64,000 nucleotides of DNA from Moniliella sp. 'wahieum' (GCA_003971905.1 RSEE01000039.1:310001-374000), one strand, 5' to 3'. Positions 7,201 through 62,636 are shown, counted from the stretch's first letter. Notes: generated from the sequence alone by a model not told the origin. Made by a program: numbers and translations.

Positions 7201-9485
7201 CGGCTAGTGGTGTTGCCCAAGACTTGTGGGAGGCGAGCAAGGCAAAGGGGAGATGGTGGGGATGCAGTCAGGGGGGAGGCCGCCGGAGGCGCCACAGGGA
7301 CGGGCGGCACAGGGGCGGAACAGAGGCGGAACGGGGCCGCCTCGCACAAGACTGTCGCCCATCCGAGCTTCAACGTCTTCAGCCCGCTCGTCTCTCTAAC
7401 GGGGTGGAGCATGTCGAGGCCGAGGCTTGCCTCACCTCTCAGCGCCTCCGCCTCAGCCCAAGGCCTGATAGAATGATGCTCGTTAGGTATGCGGGTATTA
7501 ATACTCAGTAGTAACTCAGGACTCCAAGCACTCGTGTACTCTCACATGTACTCATGCATCATGCATCAGAACTCGGAACTCAGACTGAGTGCAGTCACTT
7601 ACTTACTATTCACTGGGACTAGAGGCAGTCACTAGTCACTAATCACTCTAGCTAGCCACAGATAGCAGATTTCCCCTACAGATCGTCTGGCTAGATCTGA
7701 GATTCTGACTATATACACTGAGATATAGTGAGTACCTGAGGACTAACATGCAACATTCAATAAAAGCACTTTGTGTTGTGGGCACACTCGATTACCTATA
7801 ACGGGGGCCCTAGTCAATTATCGAGGATGGTGTGTATCAGGGGGAGAGAGCGCAGGCAACCGGCAGCGACCGAACATGGACTTCCCCTTCTGGGCTTATA
7901 TGACAGAGGGGAGGGCCCAGATCGGACATCGTTTTCTACAACCTCTGTTATATGTTAAGAGGAGCCGCAGAGAGGCTGTGGCTGTGTTTGTTATTGGGCG
8001 TTTGGTCAGCGCTCAGCGAGCGCTGAGCTGCCTCTCTCAGCTGCCGACCGGGGATTGTGCCGCCCCTCTTCTCTTGCTTATTGTAGACGCTGCCACAGCG
8101 CCCGCCCATTGATTGGGACCGGTGGCCCGTGCAGTGATAATGATCGTCGACTACGCACCATGCATCATGCATCAGGATCAAAAGTGCTACGGGCTGCTAC
8201 GGGTACAACAAGGTATAGAGGCATTTCAACAGCGTACGTTCTTCAACGCTTGGACAACCAATGGGAATTTTTGATCAGGCAGAATGCAGAAGGAGTGATT
8301 GCCGAGCACGGCCGAAACGTAACACGGCCCATCATACGATGCGCACGATGCACATGACGCTGGTTCCCAATTAGCGTTCACACGTTCACACCCGACAGGT
8401 TCCTTCCCGAGCAGGAATGGCAATGGCTAATGAATTAATGATGCAGATGAATGACGTATAAGCCTAATGCACTCTGCTGCACTGCGTAGACACGGGACTG
8501 AGCCAGTGTTCAACGTTCAAGCAGCGCCGTTAGACACACCGGGATACCGCCTGATGCAGCCGAGCGCCCCAGAATGCGGCCGGCGGACGCGTGGGCGATC
8601 ATCGAGATCATCTCGATCATCGATCACCGATCATCAGTATGCAATCATCGATGCTTCTGCTGCAGCTCTAAAGCAGTTTGATCTTAGCTCGGGCTCGCAC
8701 GGCGCAAGTCACCGGCTCGACACTCGCCGTGGGCGGTGGCAGGATATCTCTGGGGTGCCTAGTCTGGTGCCTGTCCCGCCGTCGAAGCTGTCGCAACATG
8801 CGGCTGCATGTGCCCGCGTCCTTCCCGGCCTTCCCCCCGAATAGAGGGAGCTGTAAGAGGGAGCACCGCCCTTTTGCCACGGGGGGCCAGTTCATCCGCC
8901 ATGCCGTCATCGTGTTTGTGCTACGTCCCAGACTCCGGCACCCATCCCCTCCATCCCCTCTGTCCCACACCATTAACATTCGCATGCATCCATCTCGTCA
9001 GTGATCGCAATGATCGACTTGTTCAGCATCCTCGGAGACACAGCAGGCACAGCACTCTCCCAGCCCCCGCCCGCATATCTCTGCAGACCCTCGCGACCAG
9101 CAGTAGACGGACTGCTCGTGACGCGTGACGCAACAGAGCGGAAAGCTGAGCACAGAACTACTGACCGAGTGCTCACAAGTACTGTGTACGCAGTAGGAAT
9201 GTCCCAGCCAGCAGCAAACCAGCCCCCATCCGCTGCGCAGCCCTCCCGCCTACTGCAGACCCGGCTCACACACTGCCTCTTCATTCTTCTGCAATATAAG
9301 ACTGCCCCCTTCTTCGTCCGCAACTGGAAGTCGTCTGCTCTCCCCCATATCCTACGACACTAGCCCTCAGGCCCCCTTCTGCGCCTTGTCATTGCCACCA
9401 CCCCCGGCTCTCCCCCACTCGTACCTGCCCGTCCTCGTTCTACAGCATCCTTTCACCACTTTGATCCCCGCCCAGCTCCTTTACC

Positions 9486-10094
9486 ATGGTTGACGCAAGT
9501 ACAGTCGTGCGCCGCGGCGCTCCCATCTCCCTCGCCGTTCTCTCGTTGTTTTCGTTCATCGTGGCCATCATTGCTTCCGTCCTGGTCCATGACTACAATG
9601 CCAAAGATGAAGCCAAACACCCCGGACGCAGCATCAAGAGCCGTGTGCGTTTCATGCTCTTTGTCGGCTGGTTCTCTTTCATCTTTTCGACTGCTTATGT
9701 ATGTATCTCTATGCTCCCACAAATCGTGCCTCATCGTCCCGTCTTTTGTTTTGCATCACTGACACATTCCCTCTTACGACCACAGGTTGTCGCCATCCTG
9801 ACCGGGTTGGGTGGCATCGTCACTTCGATTGTCTCGCATTTCATTTTCATCTTCATCGACTGGGTCTTCTGGCTCTCTGCGGCTGCATCATTGACCCAAT
9901 CGCTTCACGGAGGCGTCAACTGCAGCTACAACTCCACCGGAATCAAGTACTGCTCGGCCAACGTGACCCTAATTGCGTTTGGCTGGATCAACTTTATTCT
10001 CACCACGTTGATGCTCGCAGTGGTAAGCGTGATTGCTGCAGGAGCGTTCCGAGGTGGTGGAGGTCTCAAGGAGACGTTCAACTCCCGTGCTTGA
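9486..10094 (+). CDS. MARVEL-domain four-TM membrane protein; one intron 9699-9785
   Basis: Four hydrophobic segments, RFMLFVGWFS and WVFWLSAAASLT..C..C..AFGWINF pattern; intron GTATGT..CTGAC..CAG; upstream TATAAG near 9295. Confidence 0.8.
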   Translation: MVDASTVVRRGAPISLAVLSLFSFIVAIIASVLVHDYNAKDEAKHPGRSIKSRVRFMLFVGWFSFIFSTAYVCISMLPQIVPHRPVFCFASLTHSLLRPQVVAILTGLGGIVTSIVSHFIFIFIDWVFWLSAAASLTQSLHGGVNCSYNSTGIKYCSANVTLIAFGWINFILTTLMLAVVSVIAAGAFRGGGGLKETFNSRA

Positions 10095-11587
10095 AGGGAA
10101 TTGCACGTCCTTTGTGCCTCTGTCTACTCAGTGTCCCTTATTTGCGCTCGGATGTTAAGGCAGCGGCGACTGCACCCATCCTCGCGCTTTGCTCAACCTC
10201 CCCATTTCCCCAGTATACCAGCCGGTTTTCGTTGCGTCGAATAGCAGTGTCGACGCTTCGTATTGGGGCCCGTGGGTTGGGTAACGGCAACCAATTACAC
10301 CTTCCCTCTTCCGCGTCGTTTTCTGTTCTGTAATAATCTTTGTCGGACGAGCCCAACCTGTACCACAGCTTGTTGATCGGCCGTCATTTGTGTCGCACCC
10401 AGTGTGTCCGTCACACCTAGCATTTTTTCATTCTTCCTCACTAACGTCACTTTCGATCTGCTTGGCGTGAATGTACCTTGGTTTACCTTGCACACTACTC
10501 GTCTCAGAGCTTGGGACTATCGCTCCAATTGACAGGAAGGGCATATGAGTAGTAGGAACGTAATGCATAGTGTGCATGCAGACACAACAGAGAGAGCTGT
10601 CTTGGCCTTAAGAGGGCTCTCTCCCCGTTCAACGTTCCTGGCCGGCAGCCTTGGCTGACAGGCCACGTCCAGGCACTGATTCTTGATCAGGAGGTCAATG
10701 GCATTGCCCAGAGAGCAGGAGCCAGCGGTTCCCGCCATGCATTCGTTTACAAACGGAAGGGAGCGCGAGTGGGTATTACGGGGGGGACGTGGCGGACTCG
10801 CAGCAGCGTGTAAAACCGCTGTGTCCTTTCGAACCATATATTTGTTCCAGTGTGTTACGCATCCCGTCCCCCGTCCCCCCCTCGCCTTCGCTGGCTCCAT
10901 CCGCGCATGAGCTGGCGAGACCATCTGCTCGATCGATCAGGCTGGAGATAGAAGAAGGAGCCTGATGCTGGCAGGAATGCAGGTGTGAGACCCACGGGTT
11001 CACGGGGGAGTGGTCGCTAAACGTTCAACCCACCCACAATCCGTTCGAGTCTCGATCATCGATCGTGACACAATGCGTCTCCTACGTCATTCACGTCACG
11101 GTTGAGAGGGGACATCGAGGACCCTAGATCGCACCGGCCATTGTGCACAGAAAAACTTTGCTCCCCAGTTTGCGTGGATGGGTTCGATGCGCGATGGGGC
11201 GGAACACGTTGTGTGATGCATGCGAGGCGGGCGGAACGACAGCCGAAGACTGCCGGTACCCAAGCACAGTGGATGGCCAGAGCGGAATGCATGACAGCGC
11301 CCTCCAAACCCCCCGAGGAGCCGCACTGCGCCTGTCTTCCATCTTTTTTCCCGGGGCTTCGGGCACTTCACGCGGATTCCGCACTACCCCAGTGTGGGCT
11401 GCTCTGGCGGGGATGAAGACTGCCAGGGTGCGGGGGGCATGCTCCAGCTCCTGGACGCAGGCTACACTGCCCTTCTGCTGGCGCTGATAATTTTTCTGCC
11501 GCAGCAACCTTCTGCGCAGGCATAAAACAACGCTGCCTTGGCCCGCCTCGGCTTGGCTTGCCACCACCACCAGGTACTGCATTCACC

Positions 11588-13063
11588 ATGGGTAAGGAAA
11601 AGGTACGTCTTGCGTTTGGCTCCCTTCCCTCTTGGCCCAACTCCACCTCACCGCCAGTGTGGTCGACCAACGGATGCTAACCACCCTTCTTTTTCCAGCT
11701 TCACGTTAACGTCGTTGTCATCGGCCACGTCGACTCGGGCAAGTCGACCACGACCGGCCACCTCATCTACAAGTGCGGTGGTATCGACAAGCGTACCATC
11801 GAGAAGTTCGAGAAGGAGGCTGCTGAGCTCGGCAAGGGTTCCTTCAAGTACGCCTGGGTGCTCGACAAGCTCAAGGCTGAGCGTGAGCGTGGTATCACCA
11901 TCGACATTGCCCTGTGGAAGTTCGAGACCCCCAAGTACCAGGTCACTGTCATTGACCCCCGGCCACCGTGACTTCATCAAGAACATGATCACGGGTACCT
12001 CGCAGGCCGACTGCGCCATTCTCATCATTGCCGCCGGCACTGGTGAGTTCGAGGCTGGTATCTCCAAGGACGGCCAGACCCGTGAGCACGCCCTGCTCGC
12101 CTTCACCCTTGGTGTGCGCCAGCTCATTGTTGCCGTCAACAAGATGGACGCCACCAAGTACTCGGAGGACCGCTTCAACGAGATCATCAAGGAGACCTCG
12201 ACCTTCATCAAGAAGGTCGGCTTCAACCCCAAGTCGGTTCCCTTCGTCCCCATCTCGGGCTGGAACGGTGACAACATGATTGAGGCCACCACCAACATGC
12301 CCTGGTACAAGGGTTGGGAGAAGGAGACCAAGGCTGGCAAGGCTACCGGCAAGACCCTCCTTGACGCCATTGACGCCATTGACCCCCCCTCGCGCCCCAC
12401 CGACAAGCCCCTGCGTCTCCCCCTGCAGGACGTGTACAAGATTGGCGGTATCGGCACTGTCCCCGTCGGCCGTGTCGAGACGGGTGTGATCAAGCCCGGC
12501 ATGGTCGTTACCTTCGCTCCCGCCAACGTGACCACTGAAGTCAAGTCCGTCGAGATGCACCACGAGTCGCTTCCCGAGGGTCTCCCCGGTGACAACGTTG
12601 GTTTCAACGTCAAGAACGTCTCGGTCAAGGACATCCGCCGTGGCAACGTTGCTGGTGACTCGAAGAACGACCCCCCCATGGAGGCTGCCTCGTTCAACGC
12701 CCAGGTCATCATCATGAACCACCCTGGCCAGATCTCGAACGGCTACTCGCCCGTTCTTGACTGCCACACGGCCCACATTGCTTGCAAGTTCGACTCCATC
12801 CTTACCAAGATGGACCGTCGTTCGGGTAAGACCATTGAGGAGACCCCCAAGTTCATCAAGTCGGGTGACGCCGCCATGGTCAAGATGATCCCCACCAAGC
12901 CCATGTGCGTTGAGGCCTTCAACGAGTACCCCCGCTCGGCCGTTTCGCCGTCCGTGACATGCGCCAGACCGTGGCTGTCGGTGTCATCAAGTCGGTTGAG
13001 AAGACCTCCGGCAAGGGTGGCAAGACCACCAAGGCCGCTGAGAAGGCCGGCAAGAAGAAGTAA
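11588..13063 (+). CDS. TEF1: Translation elongation factor 1-alpha; intron 11603-11698; two apparent assembly indels (about 11957 and 12930)
   Basis: [74 protein letters not shown]-terminal [10 protein letters not shown]; strong codon bias. Confidence 0.99.
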
Positions 13064-13739
13064 GCGAGCTCCTTCGCCTGCTTTCCCCGGTCGAGTCGTC
13101 ATTTTGCCGGCTTGGCTTGGGCTTCATCAAATCCCCTTGCCCGAGAGCAAGCCTCGGAGTGTGCTTGTAAACCCCTGTCTTCCCCTGTCTTTGCTTTGGT
13201 ACCTGCCAACGCTAGGCTCGTATTGCATCGATTAGGTGTTACCTCTTTTCTCTCGTAGCCTGTTAGAGATCGGTTAGATGGTTTTAATCGGTGGCGCCCC
13301 AGCGCCGGCAGTATGAGCAAGCTGGATGTTGGGGTCTAGATGCTGGTGGCGCAGACGTGGCAACCTTAGTTGCGTCAATAATGTAGCCGGAATGGCGGTG
13401 GCGGTGCGCATACTCCTTCTAAAGAACAGTGAAAGAGTCCTGCTGCATGCTAAGGAGCGGTAGTCCTCGATATGCCATCCCGCCTTGTCGGTGAAGGGAG
13501 TGCGCCTGCTACTCTGGTTCGCCCACACACAACACCAAAAATGGTCAAGCATCGATCCGTTGCTGACTATGTATCGTGGGAAGTCATACAGCTGGCCCCG
13601 GCATGCCAAGGTTTGTGGTAAGGGAATAGGCGGGTGGGAGGGGGGGGGGCAAAGAGGCAAAGGAAGTGCAAGGGCAAACAAATGACGGGAAGGGAGGGTG
13701 GTGGCAGCGAGCCAGGGGGTTGCACAGGCGACGCATCCC

Positions 13740-15272: not shown

Positions 15273-17682
15273 GGTAGGGTGGGAGCAGCGGCAGGAGCGC
15301 GCGCGGGAGCAGGTGGTGAGAGATGCGGCGGAGAGGGATGAGATCGATGAGACGGGACAAACGGCGCGCAAACGTGGGGAAGTGGGTGAGAAGTTATTGG
15401 CCCTGTCTGGAGGAGGAACAAGCGAACGTTCGCCTCGCACGCCAAACCAAGTCCCATGTCCCCAGTGGGAGCACTGGGGGAGCGGTGGCGGGCAACGAAT
15501 GCATGAGTGCTAGCAAACGGGTGATGCGCATGAAACTGGGGGCACGGAGGCAGCAGCCAAGCCAACGCCCCTGCTAGGGTTACTCGCGGCAGCCAGCACG
15601 TGCAGAGAAGCCAGAGCCAATAAGCGAAGTGTCTTTTACGGTCTTTCGTCGGCAGCCACGCAGTCGCTATTTTCGCTGTATACCCCACGTCCACAACGAA
15701 GGAGAAAAACTCCCCCTTAGGGGCAGAGAACAGGGTCACGGGAAATAGAGGCAGGACATATAAAAAGGAGTGGCCAAACAAACGAGTGGATGCAAAAGGG
15801 AAAAACGAGATCTGCGATCCACCTCCCCTCTTCAAAAGAAGCCAAGAACTCATCTCAGGCCTCACCGGCACCCCTCACTGTCCATTCAACGTTCGCGTTC
15901 ACATCTCTGTTGTGTCAGGCGTAAGAGTACCCGTTTACGAGCGGTGCTACATGCTATTATTGCCCTCTGCTATATCGAAACTGTGGGTGCGGAAAAGCTA
16001 GTAAGCCAGTAGCACCGCAAAAATTGATTGAAAGGCCTGGATCATCGAAATGTCCTGACAAAGAAAAGGATATTAGTCTGATGATATATCGATGATAGAA
16101 CAACAGTAGCCCACATCGATATCTTCTTTGGATACATATCGCGGCCAGTGTTGTTCGAGAATCGGCGATTACTCAAAAGTGGGGATGAGAGATCGATGTG
16201 TGTTATAGTTGTAAGTCCGCTTGGTACCTGAGCCCTGAGCTGAGAGGCCTGTAACTACATGTAATGAGTTGGGCAACTGGTCATGACCATATATGCGCTT
16301 TTAGGGGGCAAACCTAATAATGGTCAACATAGGACCGGGTTCGGGACTCAATGAACCTCAATTGGCAGTGTCGCCGGCTTTTCAAGCCACTTATGTATCG
16401 CCACTACGTATACTGATAGTTGGTATAGAATCGTCCTTAGAGGCGTCTGTCGCCAATCTAATCCCTACATGTGAAGAGTTACACATGTATAATGCTTTAC
16501 AGGCGAGCCTGTGTGTGGGTTCGACTCCCAATCACCGGATCACCGGGGCCTATATATGTTCTTTTCCACTACAGTGTTGTCCCAGGTAGCACCCAATACA
16601 CCGGATGATCACATGGATCACACGCGTCTTCGTTTCTCTTTCTCCTCGCGGCTTCTGCGCACAGATAATACAGTGCAACAGATCTCTGACTTTTTTGACT
16701 CATAGTACCCATGTGCCCATTGAAGCTAATGCATGCTTTTATGACATGTGATTGCGTGTGAATGGCAGAGATATGAGATTGCGAAGATAAAGACGTGACA
16801 GGTGCGTGACACGGAGAGAAACACCAATAGTAGCCAATGTCATCCTGTTCTTGTTTCCCCGCGGTTCTTGAGAGTTTTGTCCATGTCATCCTGTTCTTTT
16901 CCCGTTCTTCCAACCAAAGACCTGATCGCAGGTCAGGCCTCAGCTGAGGCCTCAGATCTCAGAGGAGAAAGTCCATCACGTAGGTGGATTTCCGCCAATT
17001 ACATCAATGGCACGCAAGTATATATACACACAGCAAAAACACTTTAAGGCCCGTCAGCTAAATGCTTTTGAGAGAGATATACGGGTGAATGGATGATGAA
17101 GCTGATGAAGATCGACGGCGCTGACTCACCTTGATGATCTTGGTGATAGAGTTAGAAAGGCAAGGGTGTTTTGCTGTACACAGAATGAGTTGTGGGGTGC
17201 CCAATGCTGGCTATTTATCTAGACATTCCCGTTGTCGGGACCTCTCAGGCTCATCGATGCTAGCTTCAGTCCGGTCAGGCCTCCGGCCTCAGGCCGCTTC
17301 AGGAATGAAAGGCTTTTTATGGATATACCGAACGGTGAATTAACGACGCAGTCATCGTAGTCTTCTTCTTTCGAGGGGCTCGATATGTGTTAGCGTGTTT
17401 AGCGCCGTTTATTGCCGGTGAGTGAGTTTGACTGGGGCCATGCAAAAAGCCATAAAAAGGACATAAACCCGCTACAGCTGTGTGGCTCTCAGTGTGTACC
17501 AATACACATGCGTGATTGTCATAGTGTGTTGTTTTGGGGGGGCTGGCGTGCCATCATACGGGGGCATAACCACAAAACTTGAAGCTTGTCGCGACCGGTG
17601 TAATAGTATTAGGTGTGGGGGCAAAGAACGGGGGTGACGCCCATATGGCGGCGGATGGGATTTGGAAGCACCAGGTGAGAAG

Positions 17683-20600
17683 ATGTCGGCCGAGGGCGCT
17701 GCGCTCCCCCAGCCGCCCCTCCTATCATACCGGCGGCAACGCTCCTATGATAGCAACACTGCTATGGTACCGGGTCTTGTCCAGAAAAGCCCCTGGGGCT
17801 CAATCAGAATCGATCATCGCTCACCCAGAGAAGCAAAGCCGCAGCCACACAGGGGGGCAGTCATTAGCCATTGGTCACCATCAGGCACACTCCCTGCCGG
17901 CGGGGAGGATGCGTAGGGCAACACTGGCATGGTGCCGGGCGGACATAGCTTGCGGCGCAGGCACGGCGGCGCAGGGCGGAGTGTAGGCGGGGGAAGGGGC
18001 GTGAATTCCAACGCGTGTATATAACGAGCACGGCCCCAGTGCTGCGTCAGTACGTTTCTTCTCCAATTTGGACTGTCCAGCGCCATTCAGAGGATCAGAA
18101 CTCGCACTTTTCCCTCGTGTTCTTCCCTCCTGTGCACCACCACCAACCCACCCCTGCCTGATCCATCGCACCCCGCTTCCTGTCCCCGCCCCATTCTCTC
18201 TGCCCGCCCCCCTCTGCACGCATGTCGTCCCCCCGACTACCGTGCTCCATCCCGCCCCCGGGTCCAGCCATCCACCCCCCCACCCAACACCAACCACCCG
18301 CCCCTCCGTCGCGGAGGTGTGAGCATCAAGGACGATTCTCGCCGCACCTGGATATGGACGAATAAGTGGGCTGTGCTCACGCCAACCACCTTGGAGTTGT
18401 ACAAGAACGAGGTGAGTACCATGACACCATCTGCTGCTGCATCCAGATCATCTATATATAAGGCTTTATACTGACTCGCCTGGTCCTTTTCGTTGCTGAA
18501 GACTTCCGCGGTACCCTCCCACCAGATCCCCCTCAGAACCTTATCCTCTGTAGGCCGTGTCGATCTCAAGCCGTACTGTCTCCAACTCCAAGACGACCAA
18601 GACAAAATTCTCAACCTCCAAGTCCGCACCGACGAAGACGCATACGGCTGGATCGATGCCATTTCATCGGCCGCTCGTGCTGTGGGCGGACTTCGTCCAG
18701 CCTTGGCTGAAGGTGGTGTAAGCGAAGTGAGTTTACCCACGGGCTTTCGTCACAACGTCCACGTCGGATACGATGCCACGGCAGGCACCTTCACCGGACT
18801 CCCGCCTGAGTGGAAGTTGCTCTTGTCTAATTCGAGCATCACGGCCGCCGAGTCGCAAAAACACCCCATGGAGGTCTTGGCTGCAATCGACTTTTATCTG
18901 TGTGATGGGGAAGGTCAATCCCCCGAACTGAACCATACTCAACCGTCTTCAGGTACTCCTGTTTTGTCATCGCAATCCCCGGCTACTGCACCTCCTTTGG
19001 CAGCATCGGAAACCTCCGCCACTGCTCGTGCACAGCATCCACTATCAAACGATGCACTACTGAGCCACCCTCCACTGTCGAGTCGCCCTCTACTGTCGAG
19101 CCACCCTCCACTGCCGAGCCACCCTCCACTGCCGAGCCACCCTCCACGTCCACTTCTTCAACTACTGCGCCCAAAAACTCTCAGCTGCTTGAACCATCTA
19201 CTCCCCCAACCTCCACCGGGCACAATGAAGCTGGCTCTTTAGTTGAGAGCCCTGCGGTTCGTACGAGTAGCAAAAGCAGTTTGCTAACAAGTGTACCTTC
19301 TGTAGAAGGGCCTGCACAAGGAGACCATGAAACGACCAACAGTGTGCTTGAAACTCGCCCCTCGCCATGTACCCCGCCGCACCAGTACCTCACCTCAGCT
19401 GTGGTTGCAACACCACCTTCCATCCACACCCCACATCCCCCCGTCGACCGTCGGCGTCATGGGCGAAAAAATTCTCACAGCTGTCTCGGTCGAGCGTTCA
19501 CCTAATCAGTTCGGGATTCAAGTCACCACCACGCCAGGCGTCCGATTCGACTGGTGGAACTGCTCCTCCTATTAGTCATTCAGCGCTATTCGCGGCCCAA
19601 AACGCAAGTGGCAGTGCCTCCCCTGCTCTGATCGGATCAGAGTCTCCTTTGACTTTCTGTACATCACCTGGAACAACATCCAGCCCCCAATTTCTCTCCT
19701 TCTCCAAGTGGGCCAAGCTCCCCTACTCGGCCCTCTCCTCTAACAAGGAGCTTATCATTCCTCCTCCATCGGTCGATCAAACCTACTCCCAAATCAGCCA
19801 AAGAAGCCAAACGATTGTCGCCTCCTGCGTTCAACGGCCCTTCCTCTGATAAATGGTCTTCCGACCGTAGTTCCATGCCACGTTCGTCGTCCTCCTACCA
19901 CGGTGAAGGCAATATATTATCAGCAAAGGAGGCTACCCCTTTTCCCCAACCCCAATTCCGACGGTCCCATCACGTCCCTTCTATGAGCGCGGGGGCTGTC
20001 TGGCCATCAACCACGACCTCTTCATCAGCAGCCACCACCAAGACTGTCCCTGCCCTGGTCCCGGCTTTGAAGCGGTCCGTATCAGCGCAAGGTCAAAATC
20101 CCATTGCAGCGAAAGATCATACCAAGTTAGCTCTACACTCCGTCACAAGCTCCCCCAGCCGCCCTTACGGGCTCATTTCTCACCGTCCCGCACCTCCTGT
20201 ACCAACTTCTGCGACTCCTAGTGGCAAACCCGCAATCACCGTTCAGAAAGGTGTAGCACTTCCCACTCAAAGGAGCCGAACGAATGCGCTAAAAGGGTCG
20301 AACTCGACCAAGCCCACGGCGGCAACCACTGCGGCAACCACGGCGGCAGCCGTAGTGGCCAAGAATCCTCAGCCCAAATCGAGCACTAATGTACCTGATC
20401 TCGCCCTCGTGCCTTCATTTTCCTCCTCTCTTACGCCCCAGTCTTCCCGCCCGTTTCCCAGTGGATCGGTAGTGCGTTCCAAAGCTACTGCACCCCATCC
20501 TCCCCCTACCCAGGGATGGCAGCGGTACGATTCGCCTCGCCGTCGCCACGAGGTGGTAATAAGCGAGGCCCAAGTGGTCCATTTGCTGCAGCGCATGACC

Positions 20601-30493: not shown

Positions 30494-30524
<31 letters not shown>

Positions 30525-42963: not shown

Positions 42964-43923
42964 ATGCCCTCCCACATCCCTGGATCAAGTCCGGTTCTCA
43001 CGAACCCTGCCTCTGCTAACGTGACCAACACGTACAGGGGTCGGACTTTTCATGGGCGATCTTCGCTGTGTCCATGCTTGTCTTTCTGTTCACTCTCGCC
43101 TACACTTCCTTTGCAACAGGCACGGGGAAGCGGACGTTCCACTATCTTATCGTTGCAGCCCTTGCGTGCAACACCCTCAACTGGTTTGCCATTGCGTCCA
43201 ACCTAGGTGCCGTTCCCGTCACTGTCGAGTTCCGATCCGGCTCCTGGACTGGACACGGCAACGGATTGCACAATGATGCCACCCGTTCAATCTGGTACGT
43301 TTCGTAATCATTCACCTTATTGGATTCTGTATGCTCACCCCCCAGCTCGATTCCTCTTCAGGATCTCTCGGTACATTGACTAGCTCGTCTCGACGCCTTT
43401 CATTCTTTTGGCGATCCTGCTCGCGTCGCCTGTCCCCCTCTCTACCCTTTTTATGACCATCTTTATTGAGACAGTGGTGGTGGCGCTGTCACTGTTTGGT
43501 GCTTTGACGCCCAGCTCGTACAAGTGGGGTTGGTTCGTGCTTGGTCTTTGTGGCTTGACATGGGTGTACTGGGTCCTCTTTGGCCCGGCTCTCCTTGCGG
43601 CTAAGAAGGCGGGCAAGGATGTGTACTGGGCATACCTGCCCATGAGCATTGCGTTTGGTGTATTTGGCATCGTGTACATCATTGCTTGGGGCGTCTCTTC
43701 GGGCGGAAACAACATTGCTCCGGACAGTGAGCAAGTGTACTACGGCGTTTTGGACCTGCTCGGGAAGCATGTGCTGCTTCCGTACCACGTCTACAACATC
43801 TCGTCCGTGGACTACGAGCGCTTTGGCTTGTTCTCTGCCAAGGCTTCCTTGTTTGCTGACCGGTCTTTGCCGCCCGGCGAGGCTTCGGGCGAGCCTGGTG
43901 AGGGCAAGGCTAATACGGCTTGA
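42964..43923 (+). CDS. Microbial rhodopsin-family 7-TM protein, paralogue B; intron 43295-43361; in-frame TAG at 43381-43383 (pseudogene, base error or recoded)
   Basis: GSDFSWAIFAV, VPVTVEFRSGSWTG, W|ISRYID*LVSTPFILLA, SSYKWGWF, GGNNIAPDSEQVYYGVLDLLGK, VDYERFGLFSAKAS; colinear with paralogue A. Confidence 0.85.
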
Positions 43924-46054: not shown

Positions 46055-46455
46055 TGTCACGGGGCGACGACTGAGCCGCCATGCGCAGCCACCTCCACTT
46101 CCTTATCGTCGCTAACGCTTCTCGGATTCTTTCACTTTCACCCTTCTTCTGGGCACTCCACTTCTAGAAGAAACACCTTCCGATCAGCTCGCTCGCCCTC
46201 CCTCGCCCATCGGATCTCCCCGCTTTCCCGTCCAGGTCCTACACATGCAACCTCTGCTCGCAGACCGCTCTGCTCAGGCTCTGCTCGACGTACAGCAAAA
46301 AACATCTCACTCACGACCCTCCTGCGTTCACGCCAGTGAGCCTTGGACTTTGGATATGAAACGCGTTCAGTCCTCCGCGAGTCTTGTTTCCAATGGGCAG
46401 GGAAGGTCTCCGCCTGGGAAGCCAGCCACCCGTCGCAATGAGGGACGATGTTACA
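46055..46455. mobile_element. Solo LTR (about 400 bp)
   Basis: TGTCACGGGGCGACGA...GATGTTACA termini; extended similarity to 34094-34175 plus 36295-36593; no target-site duplication evident. Confidence 0.7.
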
Positions 46456-46926
46456 TTATATACTGCTTGAAAAGAGGATCTCCTGTTGCGTGCACCCGTA
46501 CGTGCAGATCTCCCAAGTTGGACGGGACAGATATATCGACAGTGTATACCCAACAGCGTCCTCGGTAGACTCGGTCTGAGTACTGAGAATGAGTCAGTAC
46601 TGAATCCTGAGTATTTATGTTGGGTGTTGCATGTTGCCGCGTATTGGACCCAGCCGCCCGCGCCAAGCGTGTGCACAGCACGGCGCTAGTGTTGGGATTT
46701 GCTACTGGGTCGGTGTTGACAGCACTTGCAGGGCGGGGGGCGACTGTCGACTGGTGACCGGTGGCAGAGGCGAAACGCGACGTGTGGTGTGCCATGGTGC
46801 GGTGGGCGTTCGCGTGCGGGCACAGCACCAGTGTGTCGGCACAGACGAGCTCCGGGGGCAGGCAGGCATGGGCGCCGCACGGGGCAGCATGCGGCCATGG
46901 CTCCTGGGCTTTGAGGCAGAGGCGCG

Positions 46927-46966
46927 AGGCGGCAGGCGGCAGGCGGCAGGCGGCAGGCAGCAGGCG
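46927..46966. repeat. (GGCAGGC)n heptamer microsatellite
   Basis: aggcggcaggcggcaggcggcaggcggcaggcagcaggc. Confidence 0.85.
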
Positions 46967-47545
46967 AGCAGGCTCTCTGTCGCGGGTGGATCCTCCCTGG
47001 CTTTCCCCACAAACGTCGGGCCAACACGGCACAGCGCCAGTGGCCTGCCCCCGCCGGCGGACCACCGCAGGCCTCAGCACACTGCCCCACCGCCCACGCT
47101 GCCGCCGGCGGCCGCTGTGTGCCGTCAGCACGGCGCCAGTCTCCAGATGCACATAGTCGCGTGTGGGGCAGTCACGGATCACCGCCCAGTCACCCACTCT
47201 GTCGCTTGGGTCGCTTGGCCAAAGCGCCCAGTCACGAGAGTCAGCGGTCGCAATTAATAGTAACCAGTGACGCACCAACCGCCCTTGCACGCGTTTTTTC
47301 TTCGTCTCAGCCCTCGTCCGTGTCTTGTCTGTCTGCCCCATCACTACCACCACCTTTCACATCACCACCCTTGTGGCCCCTGCCCTCACCACCCGGTCCA
47401 TGTCCATTCCCTCTCCCATGCCCGCCAGTTCTGAGGGCCTGCGCCAGGGCATGCCGTCGCTCTCCACCTGTTCTAGCCTGGGCCACCGGCGTCACTCCGC
47501 CTCCTCCGTCACGAGCGAAGGGACGGGGGGGGAAGTCTTTACACC

Positions 47546-50500
47546 ATGATGCTGCCTTCAGGACCTTCTCTGACCGGCCTAGGTGGATCGACTACACCTG
47601 TGTTCCCTCCTCCACCATCCGAGCCGTCCGCTTATTCCCCCACTCCAACACCTACACCTGGCCTGGCTGGTCCCTTCTTGGACTCTTCCCCGGATGAACC
47701 TGATACTGATGCTGCTCAGTTCGCTCGCACACCTACTTTTACGGCACCTTCATCCGATCAGGTCGATCCGAACCTGTTCCCTGCATCTTCACCCACGGAC
47801 CTCCCAGCCCCTTCGGCCTTTTCCTATCTCGGGCCCTCCGGGCTGGACCAGCCAACGAGCGAACTCCCTTGGGCACAAGATCAAGGACCTGTTACTGCGT
47901 CAACTAGCGCCGAGTCCCTGGGTTTTACTGGGACCACTTATCACTCTGAATCTATGGCTGGGGGGTTGCACGGGTCTGAATTGTCTCCTTCGCCCTCCTC
48001 GCCGATTATCTCACCCCCTTCTCCCAAGAAGCAATTGCTGTCTCCGCCAGTGGTGACCAAGCCGCCGTCCTCGGCTCGTCCGCTCGTCCAAACATATGTG
48101 CGCCCTCCGCCTTCCACTGGGTCTGAGAGTGAGACGGTCCCAAGTACCAGCAAAAAGCCTCCTCTTATTCTCCTCCGCGAAGAGGACGCTTTAGCCCGCC
48201 AATTGACTGTTGGCAGCAATAGCCGGTCTGAAGCACGGCACAACGGTCATGGTCAAAGCATTGATAGTCTCTCCGCCGTCACAGAGAGTACAAATGCCAG
48301 TATGGGCACATATGCGAGCGTCAACACGTCCCAGGCTACGACCATCTCCGCTCGAGGCGAGATGGAGGTGCTAACACCTTACGTGTGCGCGGTGTGTTTG
48401 TGCGAACCTGAGGGCAAACAGGCATTACCAGTCAAACTTGTCTGCACCCATTCTGCGCACGAATTGTGTCTCATTTCTGCCATATCGTCTCCTTCATCCT
48501 CCAATGGGCCGGTGTGCAAGATATGTCACCCCTCTGGGTCTCATTTGGAAGCTGGACGCGGCTCCGAGCCCCGCCGTCCCTCGGCTCCCGAGATGCGGGC
48601 ACCATTTCCGCACAGTCCTTTACTTAACTCTTCTATCTCCAACCGGCGCCCGTCTGAGCCGGCGGGGCACGTGGGCCTATCTTCCCCCTTTGAAGCACTC
48701 GCGCCATCAATCCAGTCAACGATACGGCATTCGCCTGATCCATCGGTGAACATGGAGCTAAGCACGCCCTCACCAGCATCATCACGCCCACATTCGCCAC
48801 TTCAATCCCGAGGCCGCTTTCTGCTGGGCCAACTGGGTTTGGGGCGAGTCAAAAAGCAGCCTGGTTTGGAGCAGTTCCTCGACCTGGACCCAGATCCTGT
48901 GCCAGCCCAGGTCAATGAAGCTCCATCTCACGGGTCTCCTCTACTCCGGGCCAAGAAAGGGAATCCCTCCGTTGACCCCACTATCCCTGGGCCCGCGAGA
49001 GCAACAGCCATGAGCCCAGAAGCGTCAGATGCATTCATGAGGCAGCTTCATCAGCACTTACACCCGGCACCTTCCTCACTATCCTCACCCCGCTCGCCTA
49101 TTGCGGCTCCAGGATCCAAGCCTGGATCGGAGCTTGAGTTTGAGCTTGGGCCTGCGTCTGAGCTAGAGTCTGAATTCGAGTCTGACCATGTACATGAATC
49201 TGCGTCAGATTCCAAGTTCACGCACAAACTCAAGTCCAAATCCAAACGCTCCTTCGAGCTCAAGAGGGCACCCAATTCGATGTCCCAACCAGCTCTGCGG
49301 TCGCTCTTCAAGTCCAAGTCCAAGGCCAGCTCCAAGCCTAAGTTCCCTTCACAGCCTCAGTCGGACGCAACAAGCTCTCGCACATCTTCACGGTCTCTCA
49401 CCCCGGAGCTCGATGCAGTCGCCACTGGTAAGCGAACTGCACGCGACGAGCCCCCAAATCCCATCCGGACTGAACCTGTGTTGCCTCCAAGGCAGAGTAT
49501 GGACGAGGCCACAGTTCGTCGGCCCGCTGGCGGAAGTGTTTCCCCCGCGCCGCGCTTCCCCCGTTCGCGAGCAGTAAGCATGGGCAAGCCACGAGCGCCT
49601 CAACGCGACCTAGCGCGAAATGAAGACCCCAAGGTCATAGCCGGCTCACAGGTACCCGTCTTTGGAGTGTCACAAGCAAAGGCTATACTGAGCAAGCTCG
49701 TGTCCAGTGACGGGCCGGGACACGAGTCAATGGCTACGCTAGAATCCACCTACGGTCTTCCTGAATTGGCTGATCGAGTGAGGGTGACGCAAGCCAACGA
49801 AACGCGGGTGTTTTATGTTGTGATGTTTGCCCAGGCCTTAGGGCTGTATATGGAAAGCCCAAAGAAAGAAGGCCTAAGCGATTCCAGTCTGTCCCTCAAA
49901 GGTCGCATTTTTTTCCATCATTCGCCCCAACTTGCCCTTGTTACCCCGCCACCGGCAATTATGGATCGTGATCCACGAGTGCGCTCAGTTCGGGTCCGCC
50001 TGGACCACTCGCAGTGCACATTAACTTTCCGCTCCCCTTCTCAAGCTGAAACGTGGTTCAGCCGCTCACAGTACTTGTTGGCACGAGCTAGTGTCCAGCA
50101 GCGAGCCCTCCTCCTCCAGTACCACCTATCTATGTCCGCCCCCGCAGCCTGTCGGCTGGAGCCAAACGCGCGCCGCGAATGGTGCCTCCGCCTGTGCCCC
50201 CCTGCCTCGCATCCATGTGCGCGACCCTGCTGGTCGGAAGACCGGCCCATCGTCGCCGGTTTCTTCGTTTAGTACGGGATCTGACTCGCTCCCCACATCC
50301 GTCCCGCGTTCGCCTTTGGCTTCCTCCCCTTCCCCCTCCCTCCCGTGCCCCATCAAGGGACCTATGGATCTGGTGGTACTTGTGTCGACGGCAGAGCGGG
50401 ACCGGGAAGCGGGAAAAGCCATGCTGGCCGAGATCCTAGAGCGTTTGGGAGAAAGGGACCGTGTGGCGGTGGTTACGTTTGGCCAGGGCCTGGAAAAGAG

Positions 50501-50815: not shown

Positions 50816-51490
50816 CGCCCGCGCCTGCAACGGCAGCTGCCTCCGAGCTGCTAGTTGGGGGGTGCCCGGGTCGGGCCCTATCTATCTATTTGTTCTTCTT
50901 CTGCATCCTTTCTCTTGTACCTGCTTGTACCCTCGTTTGTTGCTCTGTTCGCGTCTGCTTAGACTCGGTTTGATTGCATATACCACGCTGTCGAGTCTTG
51001 CGCCCCCATTTTGTCCACTCGGTCTTGGTACGAACCGTAATGAACGCAAAAAGACCTTATATACACTGTGCTGCACTCTTGGAGTTGGTTGGAGTGGACT
51101 TGGGGTGCCACACATGGCGAGTCACCTAGTCACGTGGGCAGCGATGCACGTGACCGGACATATCCCCTTCGGATCGGCGTTGGCGGGCCGGGAGTTGCGG
51201 ACTTGTGGACTTGGGGCTTGGGGCTTGGGGCCTGTGCGTGCACAGCCGTGTCAGGGGGGCGGGCACCGCGCCCGTGCGGCAGCCTCGGCCCGGTTCCCGG
51301 CCCCTGGGTCCCGGTGGCCGATTAGGGTGATGCCGGTGATGGATCACCGATCATCGCTCACTACACATCATGCATCCTGCATCTTGTCGATGTGAGTGAG
51401 CGCGGCAGCCATCCGCCTTACGGCGCATTGGGCACCTCCCTTCGGCTTCTTCTCTTCCCCTCCTCCTCCTCCGCCCCTAGCTTCCTGCGC

Positions 51491-52871
51491 ATGCTCCCGA
51501 GGACGCTCCCTAGCTTCCTCCTTCGTTCTGCCTCCGCCTCCGCCTCCGCCCCAGTGGTACGTACGCTCCGCCTTCTGCCCCCCTCCCCCTCCGCTCCTCC
51601 CTGTTGGCACCACGCCCCCCTAACATCGCATTCTCCCTCTTCCCCACCAGACTCTCCCCTCCCGTGCCTTGCTGCCTGTCCGCCGCCTGCAGACGTACGC
51701 TCCCGCCATGTCCGCCTTCCACCAAGAAGCCCACAAGCTCCTCGTCATCCCTGGCCCTATCGAGGTCGCAGACGAAGTCCTCTACGCCAATGCGCACCCT
51801 TCCATGAGCCACACCTCGCCCGAATTCGTCCCGATTCTGGGCGACTGTATCCGCATGTTCCGCCAGATCCTCTTTGCACCTTCGGCCCAGCCCATCATTA
51901 CCTCGGGTTCGGGCACACTGGGCTGGGACCATGTTGCGGCGAACGTGGTTGAGCCTGGAGAGAATGCGCTGGTCATCAATTCGGGCTACTTTGGCGACAG
52001 CTTTGCCGAATGCCTTGAAACGTACGGTGCCAAGGTGGACCAGATTGGCGCGCCGGTCGGTTCCAAGCCGACGTTGGCTCAGATCGAGGAAGCTCTGAAG
52101 CAAAAGAAGTACAAGCTTGTCACCGCGACCCATGTCGATACCTCGACTGGTGTGTTGAGCGACGCCAAGGGGATTGCCGAGGTGGTCAAGCGCGTCTCTC
52201 CCGACACCATCTTTGCCCTGGATGGCGTGTGCAGCGTAGGCAGCGAGGAGATCCGCCAAGACGAGTGGGGGGTGGATGTGGTGCTGACGGCATCGCAGAA
52301 GGGCATTGGGTGCCCGCCGGGCCTGATGCTCCTCTCTGCCTCGCCCAAGGCCATCAAGGCGTTTGAAACACGCAAGGTGCCCCCGACGTCCTACTTCGCT
52401 TCGTGGAAAAAGTGGCTGCCAATCATGAAGGCCTACGAAGCTGGCAATGCCGCCTACTTTGCTACGCCTCCGACCAACTTGCTCTACGCGTTGCACCAGA
52501 GCTTCGAGACGATCACCAAAGGCGTCCCCTCGCTCGAGCAGCGGTTCCAACTGCACAAGGACACTTCGGCCAAGGTCAAGAACTTTGTCAAGAACGAGCT
52601 CAAACTCGACCAACTCGTCGCCGACGGGATCAAGGATGGTGCCAACGGCATGACGGCCGTCAAGTACCCCGAGGGCTATGGCGCGGGCGATGTGGTGCCG
52701 CGCATGGCTGCCCGCAATGTGGTCGTGGCTGCTGGGCTTCACAAGGAGTGCAAGGACAAGTACTTCCGCATTGGTCATATGGGTCTCTCGGCCACCACGC
52801 GCAGCAGTGACATTGACCACGTTCTTCAAAGCCTCAAGGAGTCGCTTGCCGAGGCTGGCTACAAGCCGTAA
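51491..52871 (+). CDS. AGX1: Alanine-glyoxylate aminotransferase (class V PLP enzyme) with a putative mitochondrial presequence; intron 51557-51650
   Basis: KLLVIPGPIEV, SGSGTLGWD, THVDTSTGVLSD, DGVCSVGSEEI, TASQKGIGCPPG (PLP Lys), YFATPP, YFRIGHMG. Confidence 0.93.
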
Positions 52872-53481
52872 CCGACCTGCTTCCGGTTCGGTAGTGTTCG
52901 TTTGTTATTCCCAACGAGCGTGTATGAGATTCTTTCATTACCTGCGCTGCGGACGGTCACGGTATATAACTTTGCGAACTTTCGCTGCCCTCGACATATT
53001 TTTGCCTTAGCCTCTCTGTTGATGCAGGAACCAGGAACCATATGCCCATGACGCCGGTTACGACAGGTTACGACACTGGCTGGTTTTTGAGCGTGGGGGC
53101 CCCTGAGACCCAGTGTAGCTCGTGTACAGGAGAAGTAGCTGTCGATGGCAGATCATCTTGGAAGCTTCAATTAAGGGGCAGTTACTAGTTATAGAATGTG
53201 ACATGTGACATGTGACACAGGCCCAACGACAGGGGGCATGGGGGCAGTCCAGGATCTGGATGGTGCGGGGCAAGGGGCAGCGTCTGGCGGCGTGCGCGCT
53301 GTTGGGTGGAACATGCTCTGCCCCGAGCGGAGCGCGGGTTGAACGTACGATGAACGTTGATCGCGCTTATCTGCTACCACCACACTCGTCTCTTCTGCCT
53401 CCTCTGCTTCATCCGCCTCCTCTGTCTCCTCTGCTTTCTCGGGGAAGAGGCCCCTTCGGCCACACGTCGCTTTTCTGTCAT

Positions 53482-56332: not shown

Positions 56333-57076
56333 CAGTTGCCCTCAAGCTCCACCCTTCTCCCTGTTTCGCCTCACTGTCGGTCCTCATTCGTTTGATCTTT
56401 ATATACGTTTTGTGGTTTGGCACAACTGTTTGAGTGGCGTCGTGGCTTTTGGTTTTCTCCAACCAACGTCTTGCGAGGTGGTTTTTGGGCTTGATGGTTG
56501 GGGAGCAGAGGGGGGCTTGATATCCACTCAACTGTGCCATCCACATACGCACACCCTAATTTATATATTCTCCTCCTCGTTTTTTACGTTTTTGTGGTAA
56601 CAACAATCGTTATCCTTCGGTGCAGTAAATCACGGGGGCTGGTTCCCGTCATCGATCCTCTCACAGTGTGAAGCGATATGAACGTAGCGACATTGTTCTT
56701 ACCCTCGCCACTCATGCAAACCATGGGGCAAGACGGGGGTTAGCACCTCGTCAAGGTGGTGGGGAGACGCGCATATCGATGTTTGGACATAGAAATGGCG
56801 GGCTGAACGTTGAACGTTGAATTTCTCGAGAGCAAGCTTGAAATCTTGGTGGGGGGCAAACAAATAAGGTAGTAGGGTTCTGCAACTCAGTAATGGCACT
56901 GACCAGTGACTAGTGACTAGTGACTAGTGACCGGTGACCCCAGTCACAGTGCCCTTGTGTCCCGTCGGGATCAACCGGAAGGCTGCTCTGCTCGGCTGGC
57001 CATCAAGCTCATCAAGCTGCAAGGCGTCCGGTGTTTTTCTCTTGCCATCGCTGCCCAGACCTCTCTGCCAGTGACC

Positions 57077-60357: not shown

Positions 60358-61535
60358 TTAGGCGTCGTAGCCCCACTTGACTTGCGAGGAGCCCGAGGTG
60401 ACAATGTTCTGGTAGGCAGTGCCGACAGCAAGGAAGTTTTCGGTAGTGTCGGGAATCCACTCGACGACCTGGGCCTTGTTCGTCTTGCCGTCTGCGACAA
60501 TGGTGATCCACTTGCCACAGGCGTCCTGCAGCTTATCGTTGGGGTACGCAGCTGAGGGGCCGACGGCGGCTGTGATGGTGTTCTTCTCGACCTTGATGCC
60601 AGGGCACCATTCAGGGTCAATGTCGTCCCACCATTGCAGTGCCGTCGTGTACATAGCCTTCGGTGTATCCGATGATGCCTTGCCCGACGCTGCCGGGGCC
60701 ACCGCCGAGGACGACGACGACGCCGATGCCGACGCGGGGGCCTTCACGTGCTCAAACTTGGAAGAGGCGGCTTGGCTGGACGATGCAGACGCGGAACTAG
60801 ACTTTGAAGAGGACGAAATGGTGGGTCCGCAGGGGGAAGGAGTACCATCATCGAACGACCACTCGACATTGAAGAGGCCAAGCACATGGTTGGCCAGCTT
60901 ACCGAACAGACCGTACGTCAGGTCAATGTCGCAAGCATTCAGGCAGGTTTGCGTCGAGGCTGCGTCGATTCAATGCAATACCAGTCAGATCGTCTACAAA
61001 GCAATGTACTTGTGTGTGAGGAAGAAGGGGGAGAGGGTAAACGGAACGTACGCGACTCGGGGCATTCATCCATAATGCGAGCCTGCTGGGAGCCAAGGAT
61101 GCCCTTGATAGTGATCGTCTTGAAGCAGAGCTCCTCGCGGCTAATGCCTTGGTCAGCAAAGTACTTGTATCCCGGTGTGGCCAGAGCGACACCCATCTGT
61201 ACCCGGCCCAAGAGTCAGTACCAACAGCGCATCGGCGAGCAAAGCATACGGACCGTGTTGTCGTTCATGTCGGGACCACCGCAGGAACCCTGGGCCGACT
61301 CGCCCTCGGTCTGAGGGTGGTAAAAGGTGGCCTGGCCCTGGATCCCACGGGCAGCGACGCGGGCAGCCAGCGTGGCATTCTTGGCAATGTACTCGTGCCG
61401 GCCCGGGCGGGGGGCGGGGGCACGGGGATGCTCAAAGTGACGGCCAATGACGTGGTGGTTGGGCGCGTGGTGGGCGGCCAACGCACTGGTGGCGCCAAGC
61501 AGGAGAAGGAGGGAGGTAAGGACCGTGGGTGCCAT
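60358..61535 (-). CDS. Secreted protein with two DPBB (RlpA/expansin-like) domains, paralogue A; introns 61197-61253 and 60960-61051
   Basis: Signal peptide MAPTVLTSLLLLLGATSALA; GQATFY..GSCG, CFKTITI..ARIMDECP..CDIDLT..F; Ser/Ala linker; second domain WC..ACGKWITI..AQVVEW. Confidence 0.8.
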
Positions 61536-62636
61536 GTCGACCGACAGAAAGAGGGTGGAGACGCGGGGGGAGGGGGAGGGGGCGAGGGGTGGTGGGGGCT
61601 GGGAGGAGGGGCCGCAGGCGACGGGGCAGCTCCCGAGCTCGGCTGGCATGGAGGCCGCGGCGGAGGGCAGCACTGCCCCGTAGACACAGTGGCCTGCGCC
61701 CCATCTGGCTGCCATACTGCCCGCCTGCACGCCTTGTCGATCCATGCGTGGTGCAGGCCCAGTAGGCGTGTGCTGAACGTTCAGCTGAACAATGTGCCCT
61801 GTCTGCCTGCGGGCACTGCGTGGTACTACTGCTCGCGTTCGGCGAGCGGGACAGTGACGCGGGTGGCGGTCACCTGACCAGGCGGTCAGCGGTCCCCGCG
61901 TAGCTCATGCATCACTGCATCACCGGGCTTGGGCGCCCCTGCACCTCTGCTGAACCGGTGATCGCACGATGAGATCGATGGTTTCGATGCCCGGAAGCCC
62001 GCAGACATGTGGAATGTTCAAATTTCATGGCATTCGGGCTTTCATCGATTTCATCGGTCGTTCGTCGATCGTTCATCGTCCGACTTGCTCAGACACCCGA
62101 ACCGCCTCAGCCCCGGGACGGCTGCGGGCAGCCGGGCACACTGGGGAGGTGCTGCTGCGCCGAGTGGTTGCGTGGAGGTGGTCGACGCCACACTGGGCGG
62201 CTGCCCCGCCGCGAACAGCGTGCGGCGCCAGTGTTCCTACCGTTGCGCCCCCCCCGAGCGGCCACCGCGATGGCCCCGCCACACTCGCCTCCTGCCCGCC
62301 CCGTCCGCCCCCCGTGCCCCGAGCTCATCGGGGGCGGCCAATGCTGTGCCGCCAGAAAAGGTGGCCATTCAGCACAGCGTCTGTGTCCGCCAGCGGGACC
62401 CTCCTTGGGCAACCCTCGTTGCCAGACGGCACACCTGGTCGCCAGTATATAATGCACCGGTCTGATCTCCGCCCAAGCTGTTTGCCTCCCCATCCGTCCC
62501 CTGCCCTCCTCAACCACCCCCGACTGCACGCTGGCGTGTATCGCGTTCTTCCATCCCTCCCATATCGCATCACTCCGCCCCTCCCGCTTCCCTTTAACTC
62601 TACCCCACCCCCCCCAGCACCTCCTTGATCCACACA

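Follow-up and report, generated by a model that had tools for sequence, protein, structure and literature searches.

Microsatellite units are usually defined as 1-6 bases long, and routine repeat surveys count units in that range. The tandem repeats of yeast promoters are mostly AT-rich tracts and are not known to follow any palindrome rule, and sites of the bZIP type read TGA(C/G)TCA (AP-1/Gcn4) or TGACGTCA (CRE). The term 'cryptic simplicity' is said to be that of Tautz, Trick and Dover, from 1986. Published passages further describe short tandem repeats in yeast promoters (Vinces et al. 2009, via review PMC3899988) and heptamer repeats in bacteria, with the unit GGGAATC in Xanthomonas and Nostoc (PMC4692102) and the unit TAACTGA in Beggiatoaceae (PMC4679880). 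We analysed a stretch of 64,000 nucleotides from Moniliella sp. 'wahieum' (GCA_003971905.1, RSEE01000039.1:310001-374000), referred to below as the window, which has a G+C content of 57% and whose non-coding DNA carries numerous short arrays with a period of 7 base pairs (bp). The module repeated in these arrays consists of the word TCA, which reads TGA on the complementary strand, and any self-complementary tetramer. Full-text searches of the literature yielded no description of such arrays in Ustilaginomycotina, where we place the window, or in other fungi. Apart from those of the control scans, all array counts given here are those of this one 64-kb window.

Results

Symmetry of the repeat unit

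The heptamer-array pattern was confirmed as real and far beyond chance. The window contains 20 exact period-7 arrays of at least 15 bp, whereas 50 dinucleotide shuffles gave a mean of 0.9 and a maximum of 3, and period 7 stands out among the periods compared. With the same minimum of two units plus one base, exact arrays also occur at period 8 (3 vs 0.26 in shuffles) and period 9 (3 vs 0.14), and period-6 exact arrays number 22, against 3.6 in dinucleotide shuffles. The units of the period-7 arrays are far from arbitrary: among the 28 exact arrays of at least 14 bp, the unit consists of a 6-bp palindrome and one further base in 16 and has the form A-N4-T plus C or G in 15, a form that fits 224 of the 16380 heptamers (1.37%). 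Amplification of any unit, as expected of microsatellites, is thus not what the arrays record. The spacer base is C or G in 15 exact arrays and A in one. Non-palindromic units make up the other 12 of the 28 (e.g., AGGCGGC, CTTGGGG and CCCGTCC); the longest of these rule-breaking arrays, (AGGCGGC) x4.6 at 46927-46958 and (CTTGGGG) x3.1 at 51210-51231, both lie within regions of long open reading frames (ORFs).

The same rule emerges when tetramers are classified by the trinucleotides that flank them. Between two identical words, 57% of the cores are palindromic (20 of 34 for TGA-N4-TGA and 26 of 47 for TCA-N4-TCA), whereas the baseline for 4-mers is 5.7%, and of all the pairs of flanking trinucleotides that occur 10 times or more, these two rank highest. 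Between opposite words the fraction is 7/30 (4/11 for TGA-N4-TCA and 3/19 for TCA-N4-TGA). Ten-mers of the form T(C/G)A-N4-T(C/G)A with a palindromic core and the same word on both sides number 46, against 1.76 ± 1.31 (maximum 6) in 200 order-3 Markov simulations that preserved the layout of ORF and non-ORF DNA, and those with opposite words number 7, against 1.91 ± 1.23 in the same simulations. The 53 palindromic-core 10-mers are spread over 40 loci, and of the 16 possible palindromic tetramers 14 occur in them, with all four first bases present and none preferred.

These modules avoid coding DNA. Their density is 2.05 per kb outside ORFs of at least 150 codons, the threshold that defines the ORF/non-ORF split for density, and 0.21 per kb inside them. 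Distances between identical words (TCA or TGA) peak at 7, 14 and 21 (61, 33 and 28 occurrences vs ~17) in non-ORF DNA only. Opposite words show a small peak of their own in non-ORF DNA, at distance 6 (26 vs ~12), made up of short inverted pairs of the CTCAG-N-CTGAG type (e.g., 39940-39957 and 40196-40223). We consider it extremely improbable that the pattern is due to chance, to base composition or to errors of assembly or base calling: the simulations yielded at most 6 same-word 10-mers, the signal is absent from the ORFs of the same window, and the arrays have different cores, decayed copies and unique flanks.

An earlier note on this DNA, made by inspection, had described at least nine different palindromic hexamers A-NNNN-T chained at a 7-bp period through TCA and TGA junctions, and much of that description holds. 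Each of its arrays that was re-read is present, among them one at 16933-16961 and, in imperfect form, the one at 8597-8655, as are the four perfect TGA-N4-TCA palindromes (at 16945, 40179, 40205 and 61774); the pattern proved stronger than had been described there; and the predicted excess of palindromic over non-palindromic cores, the 7-bp autocorrelation and the scarcity in ORFs all appear in the counts above. Some points require amendment. Besides those in the range given, 7500-62090, further arrays lie outside it, at 2851-4167; and what were taken as separate TCA and TGA junctions are one word on opposite strands, hence one unit. The literature searches brought up no source for the CACGAAT/CACGACT-type heptamers of Ustilago intergenic DNA with which that note had compared the pattern.

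The excess is narrowly defined. In non-ORF DNA, no hexamers are more over-represented than ACTAGT and ATCGAT, and ACATGT, AACGTT, ATGCAT and AGGCCT likewise rank within the first 21. Altogether, 6-bp palindromes with outer A..T occur 142 times in non-ORF DNA vs 68.5 expected (order 2), and inside ORFs they stand at 1.08 of expectation. A general excess of palindromes can be ruled out, given that non-ORF palindromes with outer T..A, C..G and G..C are at 0.96, 1.01 and 0.87 of expectation, respectively. Palindromes with these other outer pairs have no favoured flank, whereas 65 of the 144 non-ORF A..T hexamers with a palindromic core follow TC or TG and 64 precede CA or GA (~17% expected). A TCA or TGA flank is found on at least one side of 85/144, and the remaining 59 are near the 68.5 expected (order 2) for all A..T hexamers. 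Odd-palindromic heptamers are likewise enriched only when centred on TCA (2.26-fold) or TGA (1.76-fold), and, among trinucleotides with at least 50 occurrences, a palindromic tetramer is likeliest after TCA (16.4%), TGA (12.1%) and TAA (10.6%), compared with 6.1% overall. Finally, 8 of 9 octamer arrays obey the rule with one extra base, for which the prior expectation is 2.5%. The octamers therefore identify the word and the adjacent 4-bp palindrome, rather than the hexamer, as the invariants.

Anatomy and decay of the arrays

The arrays are short, and a reading of the list of 28 shows no common start or end point within the unit. Among the 41 same-word loci, the run length is 10 bp in 5, 11 bp in 8, 12 bp in 6, 13 bp in 7 and at least 14 bp in 15; the longest exact run is 27 bp, and the longer arrays are pure. 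Of 21 three-word chains, 5 have two identical palindromic cores, 5 have a neighbour that differs by one substitution, and 2 have as neighbour a different palindrome, reached through paired complementary substitutions (GGCC to GATC and CTAG to CCGG). Dispersed repeats do not contain the arrays, the sole exception being a local 97-bp duplication, and in the paralogous segments 36300-36950 and 46125-46775 the similarity ends before any array is reached. Individual arrays are listed in the table.

Table. Arrays and palindromes built on the TCA/TGA module in the window; positions are counted from its first base
Feature	Position	Remarks
TCA+CATG exact heptamer array	2851-2867	TCA on + strand; 17 bp
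10-bp palindrome TCACATGTGA	2932-2941	after the 2851-2867 array
two TCA+GGCC arrays	3829-3844, 3932-3947	16 bp each, ~100 bp apart
two ATCATCGATCA sites (TCA+TCGA)	4060-4167	within the exact 97-bp-spaced duplication
TCA+TGCA array	7552-7568	17 bp
TCA+CTAG array	7627-7641	15 bp, then decayed copy TCACTAA
TCA+GCGC period-7 run	8006-8018	13 bp
TCA+TGCA array	8159-8174	16 bp
octamer array ACGT+TCA+C	8375-8391	module plus one base
TCA+ACGT run	8508-8520	13 bp
degenerate TCA+TCGA patch	8597-8655	exact part 8613-8626
TGA+CGCG array	9117-9131	15 bp
TCGATCATCGATC (TCA+TCGA)	11052-11064	upstream of EF-1 alpha ORF
chain TCA-GGCC-TCA-GC-TGA-GGCC-TCA-GATC-TCA	16933-16963	includes perfect palindrome TGAGGCCTCA at 16945
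TAA+CTAG array	39890-39909	20 bp; sole exact array with A spacer
TCA+CATG run	40023-40034	12 bp
dense patch	40123-40214	TGA+CTAG array 40123-40136; TGA+ACGT array 40158-40172
palindromes of the dense patch	40179, 40205	TGAGTACTCA at 40179, TGAGCGCTCA at 40205
TGA+GCGC and TGA+GGCC units	41152-41178	partial octamer register (GCGCTGAG)
TGA+CATG array	41301-41317	17 bp
TGA+TGCA heptamer array, then octamer array (TGCATGAG)	41452-41488	
octamer array CGCG+TCA+A	41915-41930	
TCA+ACGT run	42367-42379	13 bp
TGA+CATG array (ATGTGAC) x3.1	53196-53217	22 bp; just upstream of a long + strand ORF
TGA+ACGT array	56804-56821	18 bp
longest array, cores CCAG, CTAG, CTAG, CTAG, CCGG	56900-56939	exact part 56905-56931, 27 bp
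perfect TGA-N4-TCA palindrome	61774	
TCA+TGCA 10-mer, then octamer array TGCA+TCA+C	61905-61923	

Next to a heptamer array lies an imperfect 12-base tandem repeat (2858-2936; consensus CATGTCACAGCC, 6.8 copies), for which periods of 23 and 35 score too and which includes the CATG+TCA module.

Repetition and symmetry are enriched jointly

Enrichment is confined to units that combine repetition with a palindrome. Of the repeats around a TCA or TGA spacer, 13 are direct and palindromic, 3 are direct only and 1 is inverted only; 4-base repeats around a 3-base spacer that are inverted only show no excess in the window (85 vs 79.8 expected). Non-ORF period-7 runs of at least 14 bp comprise 15 of the A..T-palindrome class and 6 non-palindromic ones, for which a rough estimate of the chance number is ~1.6, so that ordinary heptamer duplications appear barely above chance by that rough estimate. 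The single-strand DNA folds predicted for seven rule-obeying arrays have energies of -2.1 to -4.8 kcal/mol, with z from -2.3 to +0.9; where a fold of two units is predicted, it is a 5-bp stem with a TCA/TGA triloop. Selection for hairpins as such was ruled out, because inverted-only repeats are not enriched and the predicted folds are weak. These results also divide a further proposal of the earlier note, in which the arrays were the footprint of a fold-back or template-switch mutational process: a mutational origin is favoured, though not as a simple footprint of that kind, given that neither the inverted-only (1) nor the direct-only (3) repeats around TCA/TGA are enriched.

A palindrome of unrestricted sequence between identical words could also be left by transposon excision, with a 3-bp target duplication (TCA/TGA) and two terminal bases from each inverted end of the element producing the 4-bp palindrome. 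Such footprints would account for the many loci of just 10-13 bp, and a Helitron-like ORF attests to mobile DNA in the window. They would, however, require at least 14 different terminal dinucleotides, and arrays of 3 to 4.6 copies are impossible to obtain in this way. Moreover, a search of the 64 kb returned 0 elements in which perfect inverted ends of 10 bp are combined with a flanking duplication of TCA, TGA, TAA or TTA, and no dispersed repeat family flanks the arrays. Excision is hence an improbable source. The ORF in question, at 4949-5416 (-), matches Pfam Helitron_like_N (E = 2.6e-10) and belongs to a run of - strand ORFs within 4221-7541 (4949-5416, 5308-6012, 6016-6921 and 6921-7541); a 98-nt segment at 4855-4952 recurs at 6290-6387 with 79% identity. 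Judging from these sequence features, 4221-7541 (-) is probably a degraded Helitron-type element that adjoins array-rich spacers.

Genes, spacers and strand

The ORF of EF-1 alpha (11526-13232) is 91% identical to those of Pseudozyma flocculosa and Ceraceosorus, and that of an alanine-glyoxylate transaminase (51624-52868) is 67-74% identical to the named Ustilaginomycotina proteins listed. On the basis of these identities, we place the window in Ustilaginomycotina, without a close sequenced relative in the collection compared. The genes appear as successive ORF pieces on the same strand, which suggests that introns are likely, and the 19 gene models used here are rough, being derived from long ORFs and Pfam matches.

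Sorted by these models, 27 same-word 10-mers lie in divergent, 17 in tandem and 2 in convergent spacers; as loci, these are 23 in 8.9 kb, 10 in 8.0 kb and 1 in 6.8 kb, respectively. The earlier note had seen a clustering upstream of genes, and the 10-mer counts agree with it, yet the loci are themselves clustered: the independent clusters, set against non-ORF length, number 9, 6 and 2, and the deficit in convergent (3'-3') spacers, 2 of 17 clusters, is not significant (P = 0.26). Clustering upstream of genes is therefore not established, and a promoter link is suggestive only. The 'convergent' spacers probably hold unannotated genes. Five of the 6 loci that fall within gene models are near the 5' end of an ORF, and many arrays are 0.6-1.9 kb away from the nearest ORF. 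The largest group of arrays occupies a 4.4-kb spacer across which two bacteriorhodopsin-like genes diverge (37360-38187 (-) and 43384-43920 (+)); the segments that flank these genes are duplicated, 34120-36586 vs 46082-46431, with 83-89% identity.

The orientation of the word is coherent by region over several kb, with 11 runs among 40 loci compared with 19.7 by permutation (P = 0.002). Local GC skew, considered as a cause, was ruled out (agreement at 22/40 loci). Relative to the nearest gene, TGA is on the sense strand at 22 and TCA at 12 of the 34 loci outside genes, a difference that is not significant; the loci are also clustered.

Several of these observations would fit promoter or chromatin elements, that is, sites or a DNA-shape signal for one or more abundant proteins, or nucleosome-excluding elements like the repeats of yeast promoters, about 25% of which, in the account of one review, carry nucleosome-disfavouring tandem repeats (PMC3899988). 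The tenfold higher density of modules in non-ORF DNA, the unequal 10-mer counts among the spacer types, the position of the intragenic loci, the regional coherence of orientation and the double changes that keep the core palindromic all point in this direction. Yet a single protein cannot demand self-complementarity and at the same time accept 14 cores, the half-sites are direct rather than inverted (46 vs 7), and one-substitution decay is as frequent as intact neighbouring copies (5 vs 5). In addition, neither the convergent-spacer deficit at the level of clusters nor the orientation relative to the nearest gene is significant, and the gene models are rough. We regard this explanation as possible if rather unlikely.

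More specifically, the earlier note had proposed an abundant dimeric factor that reads TGA/TCA half-sites; a single factor of this bZIP-like kind is unlikely. Same-word direct 10-mers greatly outnumber opposite-word ones, palindromic cores amount to 57% in direct pairs and to 7/30 in opposite pairs, and there is no conserved core, the palindromic constraint falling on the variable part, for which 14 tetramers serve. To require self-complementarity, a protein would have to read the sequence. It is this combination of a self-complementarity blind to sequence with a direct arrangement that disfavours such a factor.

Orientation also bears on a role at the level of RNA, in which transcribed UGA+palindrome repeats in untranslated regions would act as small hairpins or as stops in all frames, recognised either by the ribosome or by a factor that binds RNA. 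The regional coherence, the sense-strand position of TGA, relative to the nearest gene, at 22 of the 34 loci and the fact that three TGA words at 7-base spacing place stops in all three frames would be in keeping with this role. Against it, the 22 vs 12 split is not significant among clustered loci, the predicted hairpins are weak, many arrays are at the distances from the nearest ORF given above (0.6-1.9 kb), and Rfam returned no family match at gathering thresholds. An RNA-level function is very improbable.

Control scans

The palindrome rule is not universal to heptamer arrays and is lineage-specific. In scans of metagenomes and prokaryote genomes for five TGA words at 7-base spacing, palindromic cores account, among the matches listed, for 17 of 580 cores in at least 145 metagenome arrays and for 6 of 548 in at least 137 prokaryote-genome arrays. 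The metagenome matches listed are mostly unrelated, apparently prokaryotic heptamer arrays. One metagenome contig (L061; 5 kb, 60% G+C) carries GTGAC-type heptads, at 1520-1690 and 3380-3540, that resemble the array at 56900. These heptads (TGACTGG, TGACCGG and TGACTAG) occur in an inverted duplication, in each of its two arms, and are followed downstream by frameshifted reading frames that resemble Hsp70.

Other features of the window

An 18-base (6-codon) tandem repeat of 5 copies, at 19055-19165, is located near the end of ORF 18475-19239, which encodes a p21-Rho-binding domain; the repeat is within a gene presumed to be that of a PAK-type kinase. The ORF at 47477-50269 (+), of 931 residues, matches no Pfam family; a weak lead comes from the ESM Atlas, where the cluster nearest to it is Ste5-like (166 shared features and a score of 0.92).

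Discussion

A constraint on self-complementarity that can be satisfied by any sequence argues for base pairing or templated copying rather than for read-out by a protein. We therefore propose, with a probability of roughly 40%, that the arrays are lineage-specific heptamer microsatellites made by slippage that depends on self-pairing. The lack of fixed boundaries, the few copies, the purity, the decay by single bases and the exclusion from coding DNA are the grounds for invoking slippage, and the whole period-7 excess, counted in non-ORF DNA, belongs to the A..T-palindrome class. Under this proposal, the arrays would arise in place through replication or repair slippage and would be very short, with fast turnover. 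The unit would be an odd palindrome, nnT(C/G)Ann, duplicated head to tail, with an occasional extra base giving rise to an octamer. In this lineage, the slipped intermediate would persist almost solely where self-pairing is open to whatever has looped out, be it one unit or more: two units could form the 5-bp stem with a TCA/TGA triloop, and a single unit may form a mini-hairpin closed by its own T and A in a non-standard T·A pair, an idea that derives from older nuclear magnetic resonance work on DNA mini-hairpins. The odd, single-base spacer would prevent an array from becoming a long perfect palindrome, and promoter effects, if any, would be a by-product. Their position outside coding sequence would be explained by the change of reading frame that a period of 7 bp brings with it and by the stop codons that arrays of TGA introduce in all three frames. 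Polymerase stalling at structured repeats limits their expansion, according to one study (Murat et al. 2020, PMC7441554), and the short length of the window arrays would agree with expansion limited in this manner.

Several observations weigh against slippage that depends on self-pairing. The single-strand folds predicted for the arrays are weak, in the range of energies given above, and a palindrome of 4 or 6 bp cannot fold alone, so the first duplication, from one copy to two, is left without an explanation. Neither the strict T..A around the spacer (other outer pairs being at 0.87-1.01) nor the preference for C or G as the spacer itself (15 arrays vs 1) is predicted by simple pairing. In 26 of the 41 same-word loci, the period-7 run is shorter than two full units, and for this reason the 10-mer itself might be the selected unit. 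The regional coherence of orientation (P = 0.002) is not foreseen by slippage alone, and the 10-mer counts are far higher in spacers that contain 5' gene ends. The evidence, moreover, is that of one 64-kb window.

More broadly, and this we consider possible if rather unlikely, the non-coding DNA of Ustilaginomycotina may record an undescribed mutational process that depends on symmetry. This may be a pathway of repair or replication, perhaps one that involves a structure-specific enzyme, that duplicates 7-bp odd palindromes centred on T-C/G-A and that is strand-coherent over several kb, perhaps in connection with unwound promoter DNA. If this is true, the arrays would be a new mutational signature that can be read genome-wide. 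In an alternative reading, the same modules are a real promoter code based on symmetry; should the arrays be bound or conserved, they would be part of how promoters are organised in smut-related fungi, and a part so far unrecognised.

Returning to slippage that depends on self-pairing, its interest lies in the nature of the rule, which restricts symmetry and not sequence, is unusual among repeats and is hard to ascribe to protein binding. It points to a pairing-dependent step of replication or repair, one that acts strongly in this lineage of fungi and of which the control samples show no sign. If the rule is true genome-wide and in relatives, structure-assisted slippage could be read cleanly from natural sequence, promoter-bearing spacers would have a source of rapid change in length, and strain typing would gain a simple class of markers. 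Because routine surveys count units of 1-6 bases, a class of heptamers would escape them.

Among the closest known systems, namely microsatellites and 'cryptic simplicity', the repeats of yeast promoters and the heptamer repeats of bacteria, none has a unit defined by symmetry. Microsatellites and the window arrays alike consist of few exact head-to-tail copies with arbitrary ends that decay by point substitution, and the window arrays are microsatellite-like also in being confined to non-coding DNA and short, as expected of foldable repeats. Unlike microsatellites, they have units of 7-8 bases that belong to nearly one class, set by symmetry rather than by sequence. With the repeats of yeast promoters, as these are summarised in the review cited above, they share the form of short tandem repeats between genes, possibly near promoters. 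The bacterial heptamer repeats, as portrayed in the published passages, come close in having a period of 7, an intergenic location and many short arrays per genome, but there the arrays are long, are built from one or a few fixed units and often occur as inverted pairs that form long hairpins. Sites of the bZIP type, finally, have in common with the window arrays the words TGA and TCA and a central C or G; however, in these sites the two words point towards one another and are separated by 0-2 bases, whereas in the window arrays they are direct repeats 4 bases apart that enclose a symmetric and variable core.

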